Part shown: one piece after another, positions 487 through 9,233 of the stretch
Numbering within the stretch: the stretch's first letter is position 1
How the letters are laid out: each line of letters begins with the position of its first letter
Source: Escherichia coli
GTDB taxonomy: Bacteria; Pseudomonadota; Gammaproteobacteria; Enterobacterales; Enterobacteriaceae
Reading direction: 5' to 3' (one strand)
DNA: 9,233 nucleotides
NCBI RefSeq assembly: GCF_003334255.1
Contig: NZ_QOWU01000090.1
Position numbers and translations under genes: made by a program
The notes under the pieces: model-generated
What the model was told of the DNA's origin: nothing
Database searches by the model: none
The model's input: the letters and a program-made list of their open reading frames with translations, nothing else

Positions 487-1053
487 TTATTCAGCTTTAA
501 TACGCTGTACAGTTGACTTGGCAACGTTGAATTGAGCGGCTACTTTAGCGATTGAACTACCAGCAGCAAGAGCAGCTTTAATACCTTCTCTGTCAACCGC
601 TTTACCGTTACCCCTTCCAACTACACGACCAGCAGCTTTAGCAGCTTCATAACCTTCTCTTTGACGCTCAAGCATCATTTTACGTTCAGCTTCAGCCACT
701 GCTGAAAAGATTGTGAGAATCATCTTAGACGTGGGGTTATCGTCACCAGTTATCAGACCTTCTTTGTGAAAGTGAACCTTGATACCTTTCTGTGAAAGTT
801 TATCCACCAGCGTTAATACATCCACGGTAGAGCGCCCTAAACGTGACAGGTCGTGTACATGGATAGTGTCACCTTCACGAACATAATCGAGCATAGCCTT
901 TAGTTGTGGACGGTCTGTATTCTTCCCAGATGCTTTATCAGTAAATACCTTATCCAGTACGACCCCTTCAAGTTGACGGTCTGTAATCTGCTGGATTGAT
1001 GAAACTCGAACATAACCAATGTTAGCCATAATATACTCATTTGCCTTACTCAT
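487..1053 (-). CDS. Small serine recombinase (resolvase/invertase family)
   Basis: 188-aa ORF. MANIGYVRVSSIQQ matches the catalytic-serine N-terminus of the family (compare Hin MATIGYIRVSTIDQ). Also DRPQL, LSRLGRS, an E-helix AEAERKMMLERQREG, and a C-terminal Gly/Arg arm plus HTH (IAKVAAQFNVAKSTVQRI). The family-typical start is the internal ATG at 1029 (M-A-N-I-G-Y); 1053 is the longest-ORF start. Confidence 0.9.
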   Translation of the reverse strand: MSKANEYIMANIGYVRVSSIQQITDRQLEGVVLDKVFTDKASGKNTDRPQLKAMLDYVREGDTIHVHDLSRLGRSTVDVLTLVDKLSQKGIKVHFHKEGLITGDDNPTSKMILTIFSAVAEAERKMMLERQREGYEAAKAAGRVVGRGNGKAVDREGIKAALAAGSSIAKVAAQFNVAKSTVQRIKAE

Positions 1054-2184: not shown

Positions 2185-2288
2185 AATTCTCATAAATATG
2201 GCCATTTACAAGACAGGTGATTTAGATATTAAGAAGTATCCCTGTGAACAATAAATGACCAATCAGTAATTATTCTGTGAAATAATTG

Positions 2289-2317
2289 TTGCAATCTATA
2301 ATCACACATGATATAGT
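2289..2317 (+). promoter_or_regulatory. Sigma70 promoter of the replication operon
   Basis: TTGCAA (2289..2294), 17 nt, TATAGT (2312..2317). It gives a leader of about 225 nt before the rep-like ATG at 2551. Confidence 0.55.
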
Positions 2318-2550: not shown

Positions 2551-3489
2551 ATGTCTAAATATAACCCAAATCAGTTTTATAAATTTGATGTGCGAATCTC
2601 TCAGCTTTCAGAAGAAATTAACGCAGCAGCAAGATTAATTTATATGGTCATGGTTCATAGCTGTGATTTCTATGAAGAGAAGTACAAAGCATATTCACCA
2701 AGTATTGACCATCTAGCTTATATGGCTGGTGTTTCAAAGAGAACGGCAATCAGAGCTATTGAGACACTTGAGAAACACGGTTTAATTCAGGTGCAAAAGA
2801 ATCAGGGTCGTCAAAGCACTTATCGTGTATTCACACTGGATGATAAGCCGGAATTACTTGTAAGACCTACATCACAGGAAGTTGCAGCCTCAGTAAGACA
2901 AAATGACACCACTACCAGTGACAAAATGTCATCAGTACCAGTGACAAAATGTCATGGGGGTAGTGACAAAATGTCACCCGTGTTAGATAAGTTATTAGAT
3001 AAAACATTAGATAATAATATTATAGATAAGAGTAAAGATACTGAACTTGATGTTGGTATCAATGAAGATGATTTTCTTTCTTTGGATGAATTAAATGATT
3101 TTCTCTCTATGAATGAATCTGACCTTGATAGTGAAGCTACTAAAGAGACCTCTAAAACATCTGACTTAGAGGAAGATAAAATCTCTGATGTGAATGAAGT
3201 TAGTGACCAGCAAGATACACCTTGCCGCCTCGAATCAACTGATGATGAATTACCGGATGTTGACCTTGATGATGAAGAAGACCCTGAAGAGGAATTGAAA
3301 CGTGAACAGCGTAAAGCAGAAATTAAAGAAAGATTCAGAAAGGCAAAGCTAAAGAACAGGATTGATGAACTTGATGACTTTGATGATAGTGACGATGATT
3401 TTACTTTTACACCAAAAAAGAAAACTCACACCGAGCCAAAGAAAGAAAAAGTTAAAGTCAGACGTGTTTATGCTGGAGGAATGTTTTAA
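2551..3489 (+). CDS. Replication-initiator-like protein: N-terminal winged-HTH (HTH_36-like) and a long acidic C-terminal half
   Basis: 312-aa ORF. ARLIYMVMVHSCD...YSPSIDHLAYMAGVSKRTAIRAIETLEKHGLIQV...STYRV is the HTH pattern seen in phage/plasmid initiators. Iterons and an AT-rich tract lie inside the gene (2892..3029). SD GAGG lies 10 nt upstream. The gene is translationally coupled to the next ORF. Confidence 0.7.
   Translation: MSKYNPNQFYKFDVRISQLSEEINAAARLIYMVMVHSCDFYEEKYKAYSPSIDHLAYMAGVSKRTAIRAIETLEKHGLIQVQKNQGRQSTYRVFTLDDKPELLVRPTSQEVAASVRQNDTTTSDKMSSVPVTKCHGGSDKMSPVLDKLLDKTLDNNIIDKSKDTELDVGINEDDFLSLDELNDFLSMNESDLDSEATKETSKTSDLEEDKISDVNEVSDQQDTPCRLESTDDELPDVDLDDEEDPEEELKREQRKAEIKERFRKAKLKNRIDELDDFDDSDDDFTFTPKKKTHTEPKKEKVKVRRVYAGGMF
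2892..2976. repeat. Four phased iterons (candidate origin of replication inside the rep gene)
   Basis: AGTGACAAAATGTCA at 2917..2931, 2940..2954 and 2962..2976. Copies 1 and 2 are identical over 20 bp (TACCAGTGACAAAATGTCAT). A degenerate copy AGTAAGACAAAATGACA lies at 2892..2908. Spacing is 23/23/22 bp. Each copy contains the dyad TGACA-AAA-TGTCA. Confidence 0.75.
2983..3029. repeat. AT-rich tract with 12-bp-phased TTAGATAA repeats (candidate DNA-unwinding element)
   Basis: TTAGATAA at 2983..2990, 2995..3002 and 3007..3014, plus ATAGATAA at 3022..3029. It lies immediately 3' of the iterons and is encoded as LDKLLDKTLDNNIIDK. Confidence 0.55.
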
Positions 3490-3779
3490 TGAAAGAATAT
3501 AACGGTGAAAAACGATACAAAGATTATCTATTAAGGCGCTACAGCATTTCTCGTGAAGGTCATCTTCTGAAAGATACTCATGGGGAGGTTTACCGGATTC
3601 GACCGAAGAAGGAAGGAAAGAATTATTTCTTTTTTGATGGTGTGACAGATTTAAAGATTGACGCTTTGAGGTTTGCAGTGATGTATCATTTTGATGTCTG
3701 GGATTCAGTCCACCAGCTACGATTAAAAGACGGTGACCCCGGTAATCTGAAGGCCACCAATATCATCACAAAACGTTAG
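3489..3779 (+). CDS. Hypothetical 96-aa protein, weak resemblance to HNH_3/NUMOD4-type phage endonuclease scaffolds
   Basis: ATG overlaps the rep stop (TAATG). YSISREGHLLKD...GKNYFFFDG...H-x4-KDGDPGNLKATN loosely follows the Y-x-V-S-x-x-G ... H-x-DGD-x-x-N-x-x-x-NL pattern, but the key Asn/His positions look degenerate. Confidence 0.5.
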   Translation: MKEYNGEKRYKDYLLRRYSISREGHLLKDTHGEVYRIRPKKEGKNYFFFDGVTDLKIDALRFAVMYHFDVWDSVHQLRLKDGDPGNLKATNIITKR

Positions 3780-3961
3780 TTTGTTTTACCATCATCAATC
3801 GTAATTGTGATTTCATATTTGAAAAGCTTAATGCTGAAATTGAATCGTGTACTTTTGGCGATAATCATTTTTAAAAGCTGATACACCAGAAGCACCAGAA
3901 ACACAAAGCAACCTAAGCTTGCGAATCTGTGAGATTCAGCAATTGTTTCAAGAAAGCCCAT
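3776..3961 (-). CDS. Small single-pass membrane protein (61 aa)
   Basis: Good SD AAGGGG 5 nt before the ATG (3961..3959). Hydrophobic segment LGCFVFLVLLVYQLL. It has its own promoter (4012..4040). It converges on, and overlaps by 4 nt, the 3489..3779 gene. Confidence 0.5.
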   Translation of the reverse strand: MGFLETIAESHRFASLGCFVFLVLLVYQLLKMIIAKSTRFNFSIKLFKYEITITIDDGKTN

Positions 3962-4011: not shown

Positions 4012-4040
4012 ATAATATCATGTAAATGAGATGTTGACAA
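4012..4040 (-). promoter_or_regulatory. Sigma70 promoter for the 61-aa membrane protein
   Basis: - strand TTGTCA (4040..4035), 17 nt, TATTAT (4017..4012). Its -35 overlaps the -35 of the divergent + promoter. Confidence 0.55.
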
Positions 4041-4062
4041 TATGTTAAATAAATGTTAAGAT
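4034..4062 (+). promoter_or_regulatory. Near-consensus sigma70 promoter of the 4099..5374 operon
   Basis: TTGACA (4034..4039), 17 nt, TAAGAT (4057..4062). It is overlaid by three tandem 11-bp repeats: ATGTTGACAAT, ATGTTAAATAA, ATGTTAAGATT (4031..4063). Confidence 0.65.
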
Positions 4063-4098
4063 TGTAGTATGAGTAAGAGATTTAAGGAGATTTTTACA

Positions 4099-4389
4099 AT
4101 GACTCACACAGTTACGCGCCTTTTGCCAGAGGCATTTGAACGACTGGCAGCAATCAAAGCCAAATATCCCGATATGAAGCACACAGCGCTTGTTGCAGAG
4201 GTTTTAAAAGAGCCGGTAGACTTGACCCCTTTCGATAACGTTAAGGGCGTTGCAGAGGGTTCTAAGGCCATCAGAATCACAACGGGCCAACTGGAACTAC
4301 TCAAAGCACAGTCCGCAGTAGCAGGTTGCTCAATGATTCAGGTCTTAAGCGCAAAGGTTCATCAATTAGCGGATAAGCTGGGGGTTTAA
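4099..4389 (+). CDS. Small DNA-binding-like protein with two tandem ribbon-helix-helix-like segments
   Basis: SD AAGGAG (4083..4088), 10 nt, ATG 4099. The ORF track starts at ATG 4069, which coincides with the predicted transcription start. TVTRLLPEAFERLAAIKAKYPDMKHTALVAEVL and AIRITTGQLELLKAQSAVAGCSMIQVLSAKV each fit a strand-helix-helix pattern. This was judged by eye only. Confidence 0.6.
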   Translation: MTHTVTRLLPEAFERLAAIKAKYPDMKHTALVAEVLKEPVDLTPFDNVKGVAEGSKAIRITTGQLELLKAQSAVAGCSMIQVLSAKVHQLADKLGV

Positions 4390-4814
4390 TGCTATGTACA
4401 TTTGATTATCATGCGTTTTATCGACATAGAGGTCATCTTGTCCGTGAGAATAACGGAACATGGAAAGATTTAACTCGTAATGCTGAACCCTTCACACACC
4501 AGCAATTAAAATCCCGCTTCTCCAGATGGAAGAATGCACCAGCAGATACTGGTGATTTTGAGATTATCCATACCTTCGATTATGCCTCAGAAGATGACCT
4601 TCACGATGCAATTAAGCTGATTGAAGACTTCAATACCTCAGAAAATGTGGATGGTGACAAATATAAATCCCGTGGTAACCGCTATAACCGTGATGATATC
4701 ACTCAGGCCATAAATGCTGGTCAATCTCAGCGATACATTACAGAAAAATATGGTATTTCACGGAGACAGTATTTCTACGTTAAATCATTGATTAATAAAG
4801 ACAATTCAAAATAA
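4389..4814 (+). CDS. Hypothetical 141-aa protein with a C-terminal resolvase-type HTH
   Basis: ATG overlaps the upstream stop (TAATG). The C-terminus DDITQAINAGQSQRYITEKYGISRRQYFYV resembles HTH_7. The N-terminal ~100 aa are unrecognised. Confidence 0.6.
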   Translation: MLCTFDYHAFYRHRGHLVRENNGTWKDLTRNAEPFTHQQLKSRFSRWKNAPADTGDFEIIHTFDYASEDDLHDAIKLIEDFNTSENVDGDKYKSRGNRYNRDDITQAINAGQSQRYITEKYGISRRQYFYVKSLINKDNSK

Positions 4815-4973: not shown

Positions 4974-5297
4974 ATGAGCAATTACGAATTACAGATTTTC
5001 GTTGATAACGACACCGCTATGATGATTCAGGCTTTCAGTGATTCCGGTGTATCAATTGATTTTGACAGGCTGTTAAAGCTGATGGCTGATAATGCAGAAA
5101 ACATCTCTGACTTTATTCAGTCGGTGGAGTTTAACGAGCCTCGAATGATGCTACCAATTACCGACTCAAACATGAAAAGATTGGTTATCGAGCAAACGAA
5201 CAAACACAGTATTTCCCCAGAGCAATTTTTGAAAGGTGCTGTGACAATCCTGCACAGCGATAATATTCTGGTGACGGATTCTATGAGGGTTCACTAA
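4974..5297 (+). CDS. Hypothetical 107-aa protein
   Basis: SD GAGGA (4963..4967), 6 nt, ATG 4974. The longer ORF start at 4911 lies inside the hairpin element and has no RBS. The C-terminal MLPITDSNMKRLVIEQTNKHSISPEQFLKGAV is weakly RHH-like. Confidence 0.6.
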   Translation: MSNYELQIFVDNDTAMMIQAFSDSGVSIDFDRLLKLMADNAENISDFIQSVEFNEPRMMLPITDSNMKRLVIEQTNKHSISPEQFLKGAVTILHSDNILVTDSMRVH

Positions 5298-5374
5298 TGG
5301 GATTGATAATTGCTTGGACAGCTTTAGGTTTATTTGTTGGTTGCTGGGTGGGCAACACAGTAAATAAGAATTGA
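5297..5374 (+). CDS. Possible 25-aa hydrophobic peptide (MGLIIAWTALGLFVGCWVGNTVNKN)
   Basis: ATG overlaps the stop of the preceding gene (TAATG, the same coupling as two other junctions in this window). One clean transmembrane-length hydrophobic stretch with a basic/polar tail. It is too short for statistical support. Confidence 0.3.
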   Translation: MGLIIAWTALGLFVGCWVGNTVNKN

Positions 5375-5406
5375 TGTTACCAATCTGTTAAAAAGCTGTT
5401 GACAAA
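5374..5406. promoter_or_regulatory. Three tandem 11-bp TGTT repeats ending on the -35 box
   Basis: ATGTTACCAAT 5374..5384, CTGTTAAAAAG 5385..5395, CTGTTGACAAA 5396..5406. The same unit and phase occur at 4031..4063. Confidence 0.55.
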
Positions 5407-5427
5407 TAACCTTAAGCATGGCATAAT
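5399..5427 (+). promoter_or_regulatory. Near-consensus sigma70 promoter with no adjacent conventional gene
   Basis: TTGACA (5399..5404), 17 nt, CATAAT (5422..5427). A second -10-like TATATA follows at 5430..5435. Confidence 0.65.
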
Positions 5428-5433
5428 TGTATA

Positions 5434-5652
5434 TATGAGGATAGTCTTCTATCCGAAGTCTATAGGAAGAGCAATTTTTCCTAAAATCATATTTTCAATA
5501 ATCCGATGGATGGATATTCTGAGTTGGAAAGGTGCAATGCTTTTCGTCATGGCCTTTCAGTTTAGTCTGAGAGGTCATCTCAAAAAGTGCTTAATCATTC
5601 ATTATTGAACCCTTACAGCTTTGCCCTAACTCATGATTAGGGCGTTTTCTTT
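5434..5652 (+). ncRNA. Candidate ~0.2-kb structured short transcript (promoter to first terminator); alternative reading is a leaderless 57-codon ORF at 5435..5608
   Basis: It is bounded by the promoter above and terminator T1. Hairpins: GGATAG-TCTT-CTATCC 5439..5454; TAGGAA-N9-TTCCTA 5463..5483; GAAAGG/CCTTTC 5527..5558; TGAGA-GGTCA-TCTCA 5568..5582. No SD-preceded ORF is present. An ATG at 5435 sits at the predicted +1 and opens MRIVFYPKSIGRAIFPK... (rich in ATA/AGA codons). Confidence 0.35.
5623..5652 (+). terminator. Intrinsic terminator T1
   Basis: GCCCTAA (5623..5629), 7-nt loop, TTAGGGC (5637..5643), then GTTTTCTTT. Confidence 0.65.
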
Positions 5653-5721
5653 AAGAGTTTTGAAACAGAGCTTTTAAAGAAAGTTTTCCTGAAACTTCGT
5701 TAACGTTATAAGCAAACCTTC

Positions 5722-5757
5722 AAAGCCCTTCACAGATTATGTTTAGGGCTTTTCTTA
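5722..5757 (+). terminator. Intrinsic terminator T2 (3' half nearly duplicates T1)
   Basis: AAAGCCCT (5722..5729), 15-nt loop, AGGGCTTT (5745..5752), within the T-rich run TTTTCTT (5750..5756). Confidence 0.55.
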
Positions 5758-5842
5758 ATAGAGCATCTTTAATAAATCGTTAAGTCATCTTCTAAGTGTA
5801 TTGGCGTTGAAGGTGCTCTATTAAGAAATAACCACACTTAGA
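5754..5842 (+). promoter_or_regulatory. Leader with two interleaved inverted repeats reaching the RBS of the 5854 gene
   Basis: CTTAATAGAGCA 5754..5765 / TGCTCTATTAAG 5814..5825 (12 bp perfect). TCTAAGTGT 5791..5799 / ACACTTAGA 5834..5842 (9 bp perfect); its 3' arm overlaps the start of the SD GAGGA 5841..5845. Confidence 0.45.
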
Positions 5843-6872: not shown

Positions 6873-6915
6873 TGCTACGTGAAATCTTCTGAACAGATAT
6901 ACCCACCAAAAATTA
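6873..6915 (+). repeat. 43-bp direct repeat, copy A (promoter-like module upstream of the tape-measure gene)
   Basis: TGCTACGTGAAATCTTCTGAACAGATATACCCACCAAAAATTA. It is 36/43 identical to copy B at 9112..9154, and 25/27 over the first 27 nt. It contains TGAACA-17-TTATTT. GCTACGT 6874..6880 is inverted at ACGTAGC 6922..6928. Confidence 0.7.
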
Positions 6916-9111: not shown

Positions 9112-9154
9112 TGCTACGTGATTTCTTCTGAACAGATACCAACATCAAAAATTA
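9112..9154 (+). repeat. 43-bp direct repeat, copy B
   Basis: TGCTACGTGATTTCTTCTGAACAGATACCAACATCAAAAATTA. It is followed after 2 bp by the IS end. Confidence 0.7.
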
Positions 9155-9156
9155 GA

Positions 9157-9233
9157 TGAACCGCCCCGGGTTTCCTGGAGAGTGTTTTATCTGTGAACTC
9201 AGGCTGCCAGATCATTGTTTCCGATGGAAGCAT
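9157..9233 (-). mobile_element. Right end (IRR plus end of orfB) of an IS629/IS1203-like IS3-family insertion sequence, continuing beyond the window
   Basis: From 9157 the sequence reads TGAACCGCCCCGGGTTTCCTGGAGAGTGTTTTATCTGTGAACTCAGGCTGCCAGATCATTGTTTCCGATGGAAGCAT. From memory this is the reverse complement of the IS629-type right end (TG...CA termini, IR TGAACCGCCCCGGG). G+C jumps abruptly relative to the flanking DNA. Confidence 0.85.
9199..9233 (-). CDS. IS3-family transposase OrfB, C-terminal fragment (truncated by the window edge)
   Basis: The reverse-strand frame reads ...ASIGNNDLAA then stop (tca 9199..9201 on +), matching my recollection of the IS629 OrfB C-terminus (...YYASIGNDDLAA). 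Confidence 0.7.
   Translation of the reverse strand, partial: ASIGNNDLAA

Follow-up and report, generated by a model that had tools for sequence, protein, structure and literature searches.

ArcA, a response regulator of the OmpR/PhoB family, is the partner of the redox-sensing kinase ArcB. Its binding site in Escherichia coli, the ArcA box, is an 18-bp sequence containing two TGTTA direct repeats spaced 11 bp centre to centre; across the 176 ArcA regions mapped, sites contain 2-5 repeats, mostly three to five at 11 bp, most sites overlap sigma-70 elements and repress, and boxes bound in vivo score 9.1-21 bits in the published range, with a mean of 15.6 (PMC3798270). Multi-repeat operators for phosphorylated ArcA (ArcA-P) include those of icdA (three repeats), acs (three) and astC (four) (PMC3798270, PMC4173790). 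At the footprinted icdA site the repeats carry 11.2, 4.9 and 3.0 bits, all of them contribute and binding is cooperative; moving repeats towards consensus, or adding a fourth, produced stronger repression that was largely O2-insensitive because the little ArcA-P present in air suffices, no binding was found when the third repeat was displaced by one base, and high-information repeats seldom occur in runs in the chromosome (PMC4173790). On a mobile element, the closest described case is the PY promoter of plasmid R1, where ArcA-P (SfrA) protects TGTTAAGTAAATGTTAA, at -76 to -60, in DNase I footprints; the promoter is a weak one, with the box far upstream of it, and ArcA-P acts positively there with TraJ by countering silencing by H-NS (PMC7303359). 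Here we describe two arrays of TGTT repeats on an integrative island in a 9,233-nucleotide stretch of E. coli DNA (contig NZ_QOWU01000090.1; hereafter, the window), and we propose, with a probability of about 0.72, that they are binding sites of host ArcA-P, which would regulate the promoters of the island.

The arrays lie on two predicted promoters, P1, which precedes a short early operon, and P2, further downstream, which together are the top sigma-70 matches on the plus strand of the window. P1 has 10/12 consensus matches plus an extended -10 and is kept in alignment A1; P2 has 11/12 matches, the best in the window, and is a conservation island in alignment A2 and 74 unique sequences. An earlier note, made from the sequence alone, had described 11-bp-phased TGTT triplets at 4031..4063 and 5374..5406, and the units read exactly as it claimed, with TGTT at 4032, 4043 and 4054 (P1) and at 5375, 5386 and 5397 (P2). 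Its count of exactly three units per array is right for P2 but too low for P1, where a 4-mer periodicity scan found ATGT also at 4020, in phase with the others, giving four direct repeats (DR0 to DR3, with DR0, ATGTAAATGAG, at 4020-4030). The cores are TGTAA, TGTTG, TGTTA and TGTTA at P1 and TGTTA, TGTTA and TGTTG at P2, every spacing within the two arrays of the window is 11 bp, the P1 array overlays the predicted -35, spacer and -10, and DR3 of P2 coincides with the predicted -35. TGTT occurs 41 times on the plus strand; two separated triplets of any 4-mer at any period from 8 to 13 appeared in 0/300 dinucleotide-preserving shuffles, as did (0/300) even a single TGTT triplet at period 11. 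A chance origin of the paired triplets is excluded.

To score the arrays as ArcA sites, we rebuilt an ArcA matrix from 115/128 published boxes defined by chromatin immunoprecipitation (Table S3, PMC3798270), under which the training boxes reach a maximum of 21.6 bits with a mean of 15.8. Three boxes of at least 18 bits are present in the window, compared with 0.044 expected from 1000 shuffles, and all three are on P1 or P2 (Table 1). Single repeats score 10.1, 9.3, 12.7 and 9.6 bits for DR0 to DR3 of P1 and 10.7, 9.4 and 5.5 bits for DR1 to DR3 of P2. The array ends are sharp, because the next in-phase units just outside are strongly negative (-5.9 and -11.9 bits at the P1 flanks). The TGTTG and TGTAA core variants also occur among published ArcA boxes, and positions 4043-4059 of the window, TGTTAAATAAATGTTAA, differ by one mismatch from the 17-mer footprinted at R1 PY. 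The arrays thus have a TGTTA-type core, 11-bp spacing, scores in the range of ArcA sites and an overlap with the predicted sigma-70 region. With icdA, acs and astC they share TGTTA direct repeats at 11 bp, three to four of them consecutive, overlapping sigma-70 -35/-10 elements, and P2, like chromosomal ArcA operators, combines a strong pair with weaker outer repeats. P1 is different, in that all of its repeats are of high information (9.3-12.7 bits, compared with 11.2, 4.9 and 3.0 bits at icdA). The setting differs as well, since the chromosomal operators control carbon-oxidation genes and the predicted sites described here are on the early promoters of a mobile island.

Comparison with relatives points to the same kind of site. 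We gathered 80 metagenomic loci via the conserved 107-aa protein encoded upstream of P2, and four additional loci via a protein named by its source as Citrobacter braakii. In seven divergent E. coli copies both arrays are islands of identity amid 68-88% mean column identity, and among ~90 related loci neither the TGTT(A/G) cores nor the 11-bp distance within the core pair ever differs, while the bases between the cores vary. Loss of the TGTT phasing in homologues, which the earlier note had named as evidence against its proposal, was not seen for the core pair, which keeps its phasing in every related locus. At P2, a box of at least 15 bits is found in 87/89 loci, and the three TGTT cores are invariant among the 74 unique sequences, in which the bases between cores read CCAAT, TCAAT, TCAAC, CCAGA or TCAGG. 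The exact 11-bp spacing claimed earlier applies to DR1-DR2 in all cases, but in a minority of relatives DR2-DR3 is 10 bp, one A having been lost from an A5 run.

The early promoter carries a box of at least 17.6 bits in 73/75 loci and exists in two forms. In type A, the form in the window, there are four units (about -49 to -6), whose cores show no variation among 17 unique sequences. In type B, found in sister islands with a different first gene, two units lie directly upstream of the -35 and have the consensus form ATGTTAATAAAATGTTAA; TGTTA-N6-TGTTA is fixed, the six inner bases are ATAAAA, ATGAAA, CGAAAA, CGAAAT, CGTAAT or CGAGAT, and the distance of the core pair to the -35 shifts by 1 bp. 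This combination of a fixed 11-bp core pair, free inner bases and a loose position relative to the promoter argues for a two-subunit protein-binding site rather than promoter sequence. ATGTTAATAAAATGTTAA scores 25.1 of a possible 25.25 bits, and 17/18 of its positions fit the ArcA consensus. When cores were held fixed and the filler was random and AT-rich, 24.3 bits (the best box at P1) was reached in ~1% of trials and 25.1 bits in just 0.04%, which indicates that in type B the non-core bases, too, are tuned to ArcA. Just downstream of the -10/start of type B lies another ArcA-like box, inverted and scoring ~18 bits (5483-5500 (-) in L008 and 5477-5494 (-) in L009), such that the core promoter is bracketed by two boxes.

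Within the boxes, variation is restricted to positions 7-12, where ArcA information is low. Variation and information content are negatively correlated in type B (Spearman -0.83, p = 2e-5) and P2 (-0.61, p = 0.007), p-values that are generous because related sequences share descent and their independence is overstated. In the divergent loci reached via the C. braakii-named protein (L091-L094), every non-core base has changed and the cores are kept. As the earlier note had suggested, the repeats over both strong promoters are, on this comparative evidence, functional DNA that appears to be a same-face tandem protein-binding array, with cores under purifying selection while the inner bases drift. 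In L094 (2434-2444), the -35 of P1 reads TTAACA instead of TTGACA within the unit TTGTTAACAAT, a change that brings the repeat nearer to the ArcA consensus and costs consensus in the -35. A LexA box was considered for the conserved stretch upstream of P1 and ruled out, as it has no ACAG half-site.

Table 1. Predicted promoters, repeat arrays, ArcA-like boxes, genes and transcript in the window
Feature	Position	Strand	Description
P1 promoter, early operon (predicted)	4034..4062	+	TTGACA 4034-4039, 17 bp, TAAGAT 4057-4062; extended -10 TG 4054-4055
P1 array	4020..4063	+	four direct repeats, 11-bp period; ~-49 to -6 relative to inferred start near 4069
P1 units	4020..4063	+	DR0 ATGTAAATGAG 4020-4030; DR1 ATGTTGACAAT 4031-4041; DR2 ATGTTAAATAA 4042-4052; DR3 ATGTTAAGATT 4053-4063
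Putative ArcA box	4020-4037	+	14.2 bits
Putative ArcA box	4031-4048	+	20.4 bits
Putative ArcA box	4042-4059	+	24.3 bits, exceeds every training box
P2 promoter (predicted)	5399..5427	+	TTGACA 5399-5404, 17 bp, CATAAT 5422-5427; TG present
P2 array	5374..5406	+	~-60 to -28 relative to inferred start near 5434
P2 units	5374..5406	+	DR1 ATGTTACCAAT 5374-5384; DR2 CTGTTAAAAAG 5385-5395; DR3 CTGTTGACAAA 5396-5406
Putative ArcA box	5374-5391	+	18.3 bits (P2 DR1-DR2, strong box)
Putative ArcA box	5385-5402	+	9.9 bits
Divergent promoter-like site	4012..4040	-	TTGTCA (complement of 4035-4040), 17 bp, TATTAT (complement of 4012-4017)
61-aa open reading frame	3776..3961	-	hydrophobic segment, membrane-type; AAGGGG ribosome-binding site; reads away from P1
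First P1-operon gene	4099..4389	+	96 aa; single-chain tandem ribbon-helix-helix model, TraY-like fold; candidate DNA binder
Second gene	4389..4814	+	141 aa; C-terminal helix-turn-helix-like segment; replaced by other genes in some variants
Third gene	4974..5297	+	107 aa; directly upstream of P2; in all variants; 3368 relatives
Inferred P2 transcript	5434..5650	+	~215 nt; ends at intrinsic terminator 5622-5650, upstream of 236-aa and tail genes
Weak ArcA-like box	2275..2292	+	CTGTGAAATAATTGTTGC; 11.9 bits; overlaps -35 TTGCAA 2289-2294 before Rep-like gene
Moderate ArcA-like box	5766..5783	+	TCTTTAATAAATCGTTAA; 14.6 bits; upstream of 236-aa gene; in most related loci

Alternatively, the repeats could be the operator of the island's own ribbon-helix-helix (RHH) protein, encoded by the first gene of the P1 operon, which without ArcA would bind one repeat per monomer as a TraY-like train of three to four, autorepress P1 and repress P2. 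This was, in essence, the proposal of the earlier note, and its premise that the first gene is RHH-like agrees with our structural model. The 96-aa protein is predicted to fold as strand-helix-helix twice with a disordered linker between (E3-7, H10-22, H28-36, linker, E57-61, H62-75, H79-94; pLDDT 62.7, moderate confidence), which in the model amounts to two RHH motifs in one chain, an asymmetric pseudo-dimer; its best structural matches are F TraY, the closest, and single-chain Arc, with 73 residues aligning to each. At the level of sequence, no Pfam family was matched at E up to 0.1 and none in PHROGs, and comparison of its profile with PDB sequences gave only E ~1 to designed proteins. F TraY is a monomeric tandem RHH protein that binds oriT as a train of three over ~30 bp, two direct and one inverted, and R1 TraY subsites include ATGT (PMC12117103). 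Monomers on same-face subsites of ~10-11 bp are a known RHH mode, and three to four tandem subsites on one DNA face at 11 bp is a geometry common to ArcA and RHH sites, such that it does not discriminate between them. Nor does presence or absence separate the two, because an orthologue with 31-37% identity and the same strand motifs (HTxTR and IRIT) is found in every island variant examined, including sister islands that keep TGTTA pairs.

The sequence of the repeats is what argues for ArcA. Known RHH subsites differ from TGTTA, being GA(G/T)A or ATGT for TraY and heptads for omega, and the operator of an RHH protein unrelated to ArcA would need to agree with the ArcA consensus in five respects, namely core, period, flanking bases, the number of repeats and the variants allowed; the ArcA reading requires nothing more. 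Because the near-identical R1 PY 17-mer is a footprinted ArcA-P site, ArcA-P should bind the P1 repeats whatever the RHH protein does. No covariation of protein and repeats is discernible: the strand motifs and the repeat cores are both invariant across type A and type B, and in L010, where the strand arginine is replaced (AIHIT; R-to-H), the cores are unchanged. What links the RHH protein to the repeats is adjacency only. Thus, of the operator proposed in the earlier note, the encoded RHH protein and the tandem same-face array stand, whereas core, period, flanks and position fit ArcA-P; an RHH operator independent of ArcA we regard as unlikely.

Slightly less probable again is that both proteins use the same DNA, with ArcA-P holding the promoters off and the RHH protein (or the 107-aa protein), on overlapping repeats, reinforcing it as a co-repressor or displacing it as an anti-repressor. 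The cores at P1 and P2 are conserved beyond what ArcA needs, the RHH gene is conserved beside the arrays, and there is precedent in the regulatory region of the F-like PY-traY operon, where ArcA and TraY are both present. Such a dual arrangement is, however, purely inferential, no second motif is separable from the ArcA cores, and the extra conservation may merely mirror recent common ancestry.

Another host regulator of the OmpR/PhoB family that reads direct repeats of ~11 bp, such as PhoP, PhoB or TorR, is very improbable. The family shares a head-to-tail dimer geometry and an 11-bp repeat period, and the cores of these three are GTTTA (PhoP), TGTCA (PhoB) and TGTTCA (TorR), the PhoP box consisting of (T/G)GTTTA hexamers 5 nt apart. 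Compared by consensus, not by matrix, the TGTTA/TGTTG cores of the island differ from all three, whereas under the ArcA matrix the sites score as high as the best training boxes or higher. A PhoP box fits the spacing, but the hexamers TGTTAA/TGTTGA have A or G where PhoP needs T, and a pho box, also of 11-bp period, was ruled out on its core sequence, although PhoB and ArcA boxes are alike in spacing and composition (PMC3798270). Equally improbable is that no dedicated protein binds and that the repeats arise as a side effect of promoter elements (a TG ahead of TTGACA and, 22 bp on, the TGnTA of an extended -10) and of the common ancestry of paralogous promoters. Two TGTT cores at P1 do coincide with the -35 and the extended -10, and TTGACA and a ATTGTAnnTATGAG stretch after the -10 are common to P1, P2 and the type-B promoter, which suggests duplication. 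The spacer unit at 4042 and DR0 of P1 are nevertheless left unexplained, as is the pair of units that precedes the -35 at P2 and in type B; these units are as invariant as the -35 while their neighbours vary, and the pattern was reproduced in 0/300 shuffles.

Host ArcA, not the neighbouring RHH protein, is therefore the most likely regulator as judged from the DNA, a reading that joins four observations: the sequence match, its rarity, its position at the promoters and the pattern of conservation. Several points weigh against it, in addition to the shared descent that inflates the correlations above. The entire case for ArcA is sequence-based. The RHH gene is conserved in all variants and its product could use the same repeats. 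The core region of P2 is more uniformly conserved than ArcA alone needs (CCAATC, for example, is present in most loci), which may reflect recent spread or a second factor. Finally, both P2 and the type-B promoter have their strong box upstream of the -35, and because ArcA can act positively from upstream, as it does at R1 PY, the label of repressor may be wrong for P2.

From these sequences we infer not only binding of ArcA-P but also the direction of regulation and its physiological trigger. At P1, the four repeats cover the -35, spacer and extended -10, as well as the -35 and spacer of a divergent promoter, the geometry of occlusion seen at ArcA targets that are repressed, and ArcA-P dimers bound cooperatively would exclude RNA polymerase and silence the early operon whenever ArcA-P is present, as it would be in the gut or elsewhere under anaerobic or microaerobic conditions. 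Silencing would be very tight, and because the repeats are so close to consensus it would probably reach into aerobic growth. At P2, ArcA-P would occupy the strong pair (~-60 to -43, a position shared with type-B promoters), and the weak third repeat, which lies on the -35, would need to be in phase for cooperative filling; repression is the most likely outcome where it is in phase, although the sign at P2 is not established. Coordination of both promoters by one regulator, as the earlier note had envisaged for the early operon and the second promoter, is plausible.

P1 resembles R1 PY in being the main operon promoter of a mobile element whose first gene encodes an RHH protein (traY in R1). 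The predicted outcome is different, since the island promoters are near-consensus, unlike the weak PY promoter, and the P1 repeats sit atop the -35 and -10, an arrangement that predicts repression; on the island, no activator resembling TraJ was identified. The divergent promoter-like site on the minus strand (10/12 matches, TG present) has a -35 that overlaps the -35 of P1 and a spacer that contains DR0, such that the P1 array would control both directions. Its likely target is the 61-aa open reading frame, and in type-B islands a different minus-strand open reading frame of 61-62 aa is annotated in the same place.

A more tentative extension, which we consider rather doubtful as a whole, is that the island has no lysogeny-type repressor and has outsourced this role to the host by means of a supra-consensus four-repeat ArcA operator. 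The early operon and the divergent membrane-protein gene would then be shut at low ArcA-P, even in air, induction would need removal of ArcA-P or collapse of Arc signalling, and ArcAB would serve as the sensor that times the life cycle of a phage-satellite-like element. Candidate triggers would include the TraY-like RHH protein, a helper-phage factor and perturbation of the respiratory chain during phage infection.

Two further ArcA-like boxes are present in the window. The earlier note had also pointed to a weaker array on the rep promoter, but the box there (single repeats of 5.7 and 8.0 bits) is indistinguishable from chance, as its 11.9 bits compare with ~2 boxes of at least 12 bits expected per shuffled window. 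Conservation is uninformative for this box because the whole region is uniformly conserved, and coordination with the replication promoter is a weak proposition. The other box, which precedes the 236-aa gene, falls within an inverted repeat of 22 nt (5751-5772 / 5807-5828).

P2 appears, from the sequence downstream of it, to drive a structured non-coding RNA or leader. In the predicted transcript, compensatory variants occur in the 5' hairpins, and an invariant block, GAAAGGTGCAATGCTTTTCG, lies at ~5527-5547, followed at a fixed position by a 12-13-bp hairpin (-15 to -18 kcal/mol) whose whole stem is swapped among at least four cassettes in relatives; two terminator-like hairpins precede the 236-aa gene and tail genes, the feature taking in 5434-5650 and 5717-5757 of the window. 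This layout recalls, by analogy, a nut-like site, with a boxA-like block and a variable boxB-like hairpin, or a small RNA. Rfam gave no significant family match in the window, the P2 transcript included.

The 141-aa protein is unlikely to be the binder because several variants (L008, L009 and L010) lack it and still have the arrays; the copy in the window has no Pfam match, and the HTH_28 match of a 128-aa orthologue (E 8e-4) is below the cut-off. For the 107-aa protein, the AlphaFold2 model is unusable (pLDDT 42), and profile comparison of the 96-aa and 107-aa families revealed no relationship. A 25-aa hydrophobic open reading frame (MGLIIAWTALGLFVGCWVGNTVNKN, 5297-5373) overlaps the stop of the 107-aa gene (TAATG) and terminates right next to the first P2 repeat; it is kept open in two allelic forms among relatives. 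Pfam and PHROGs gave no match for the 96-, 141-, 107-, 236-, 71- and 61-aa proteins of the window.

Positions 1-99 and 9146-9233, at the ends of the window, match insertion sequence (IS) elements, IS421-like on the left and IS3/IS629-like on the right. Related chromosomal loci are present in 569/5426 complete E. coli genomes (~10%), and carriers include Escherichia, Shigella, E. albertii and Citrobacter, all of which encode ArcAB. A near-identity search of deposited phage and plasmid collections returned matches at the IS ends of the window only and none for the remainder; when one genome of each species was scanned, a single locus was recovered. The UMNK88 copy is complete and sits between yciI and tonB, and further copies adjoin ymdF or mdtG. 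Complete elements are integrative, ~11-12 kb in size, and encode, in order, a small serine recombinase, a Dam methylase with a C-terminal helix-turn-helix, a Rep-like winged-helix protein with internal iterons, the short early operon, a non-coding stretch, a 236-aa gene, a 71-aa gene, a tape-measure gene, a Dit-like tail gene and a large serine recombinase. The copy in the window is shortened and is without the Dit-like gene and the large serine recombinase. From its gene content the element looks like a phage-satellite-like integrative island; searches of the literature yielded nothing specific on this family of islands or on prophages or satellites controlled by ArcA.

Other features of the island are recorded here as separate observations. 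The small, invertase-like serine recombinase is encoded at 487-1053 (-) in the window and at 12418-12966 (+) in L001, with no detectable DNA similarity between the two; its location on opposite strands in the window and UMNK88 had raised suspicion of an invertible segment, and BLAST revealed a replaced cassette and no inversion. The Dam-family methyltransferase (1522-2184) carries a C-terminal resolvase-type helix-turn-helix (HTH_7, E 3e-4, below the Pfam cut-off), an unusual fusion. Within the Rep-like gene (2551-3489), four copies of AGTGACAAAATGTCA at 22-23-bp spacing (2897-2981) look, by analogy, like an iteron-type origin inside an initiator gene, as in lambda O. A 43-nt direct repeat beginning TGCTACGTGAWWTCTTCTGAACAGATA (6873-6915 / 9112-9154, 84% identical) precedes the tape-measure gene with its first copy; its second copy precedes the gene that follows, in complete islands the Dit-like one. 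The repeat may represent a late promoter or a regulatory site present twice.

Multi-repeat ArcA sites are already known; what is new, as predicted from sequence, is their setting on a common mobile island and an unusually strong four-repeat operator. P1 would be a natural case of the architecture that Park and Kiley engineered, four consecutive near-consensus repeats, and could show how the number and strength of repeats set signal sensitivity. For annotation, these arrays suggest that host regulators should be checked before promoter repeats are given to the nearest small DNA-binding protein. If the ArcA assignment is true, it would extend the single well-studied example, that of ArcA acting on the tra promoter in F-like plasmids, to a widespread, uncharacterised E. 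coli island wired to the oxygen/redox sensor of its host, and it would link the oxygen status of the gut to the activity of a mobile, probably phage-dependent element.

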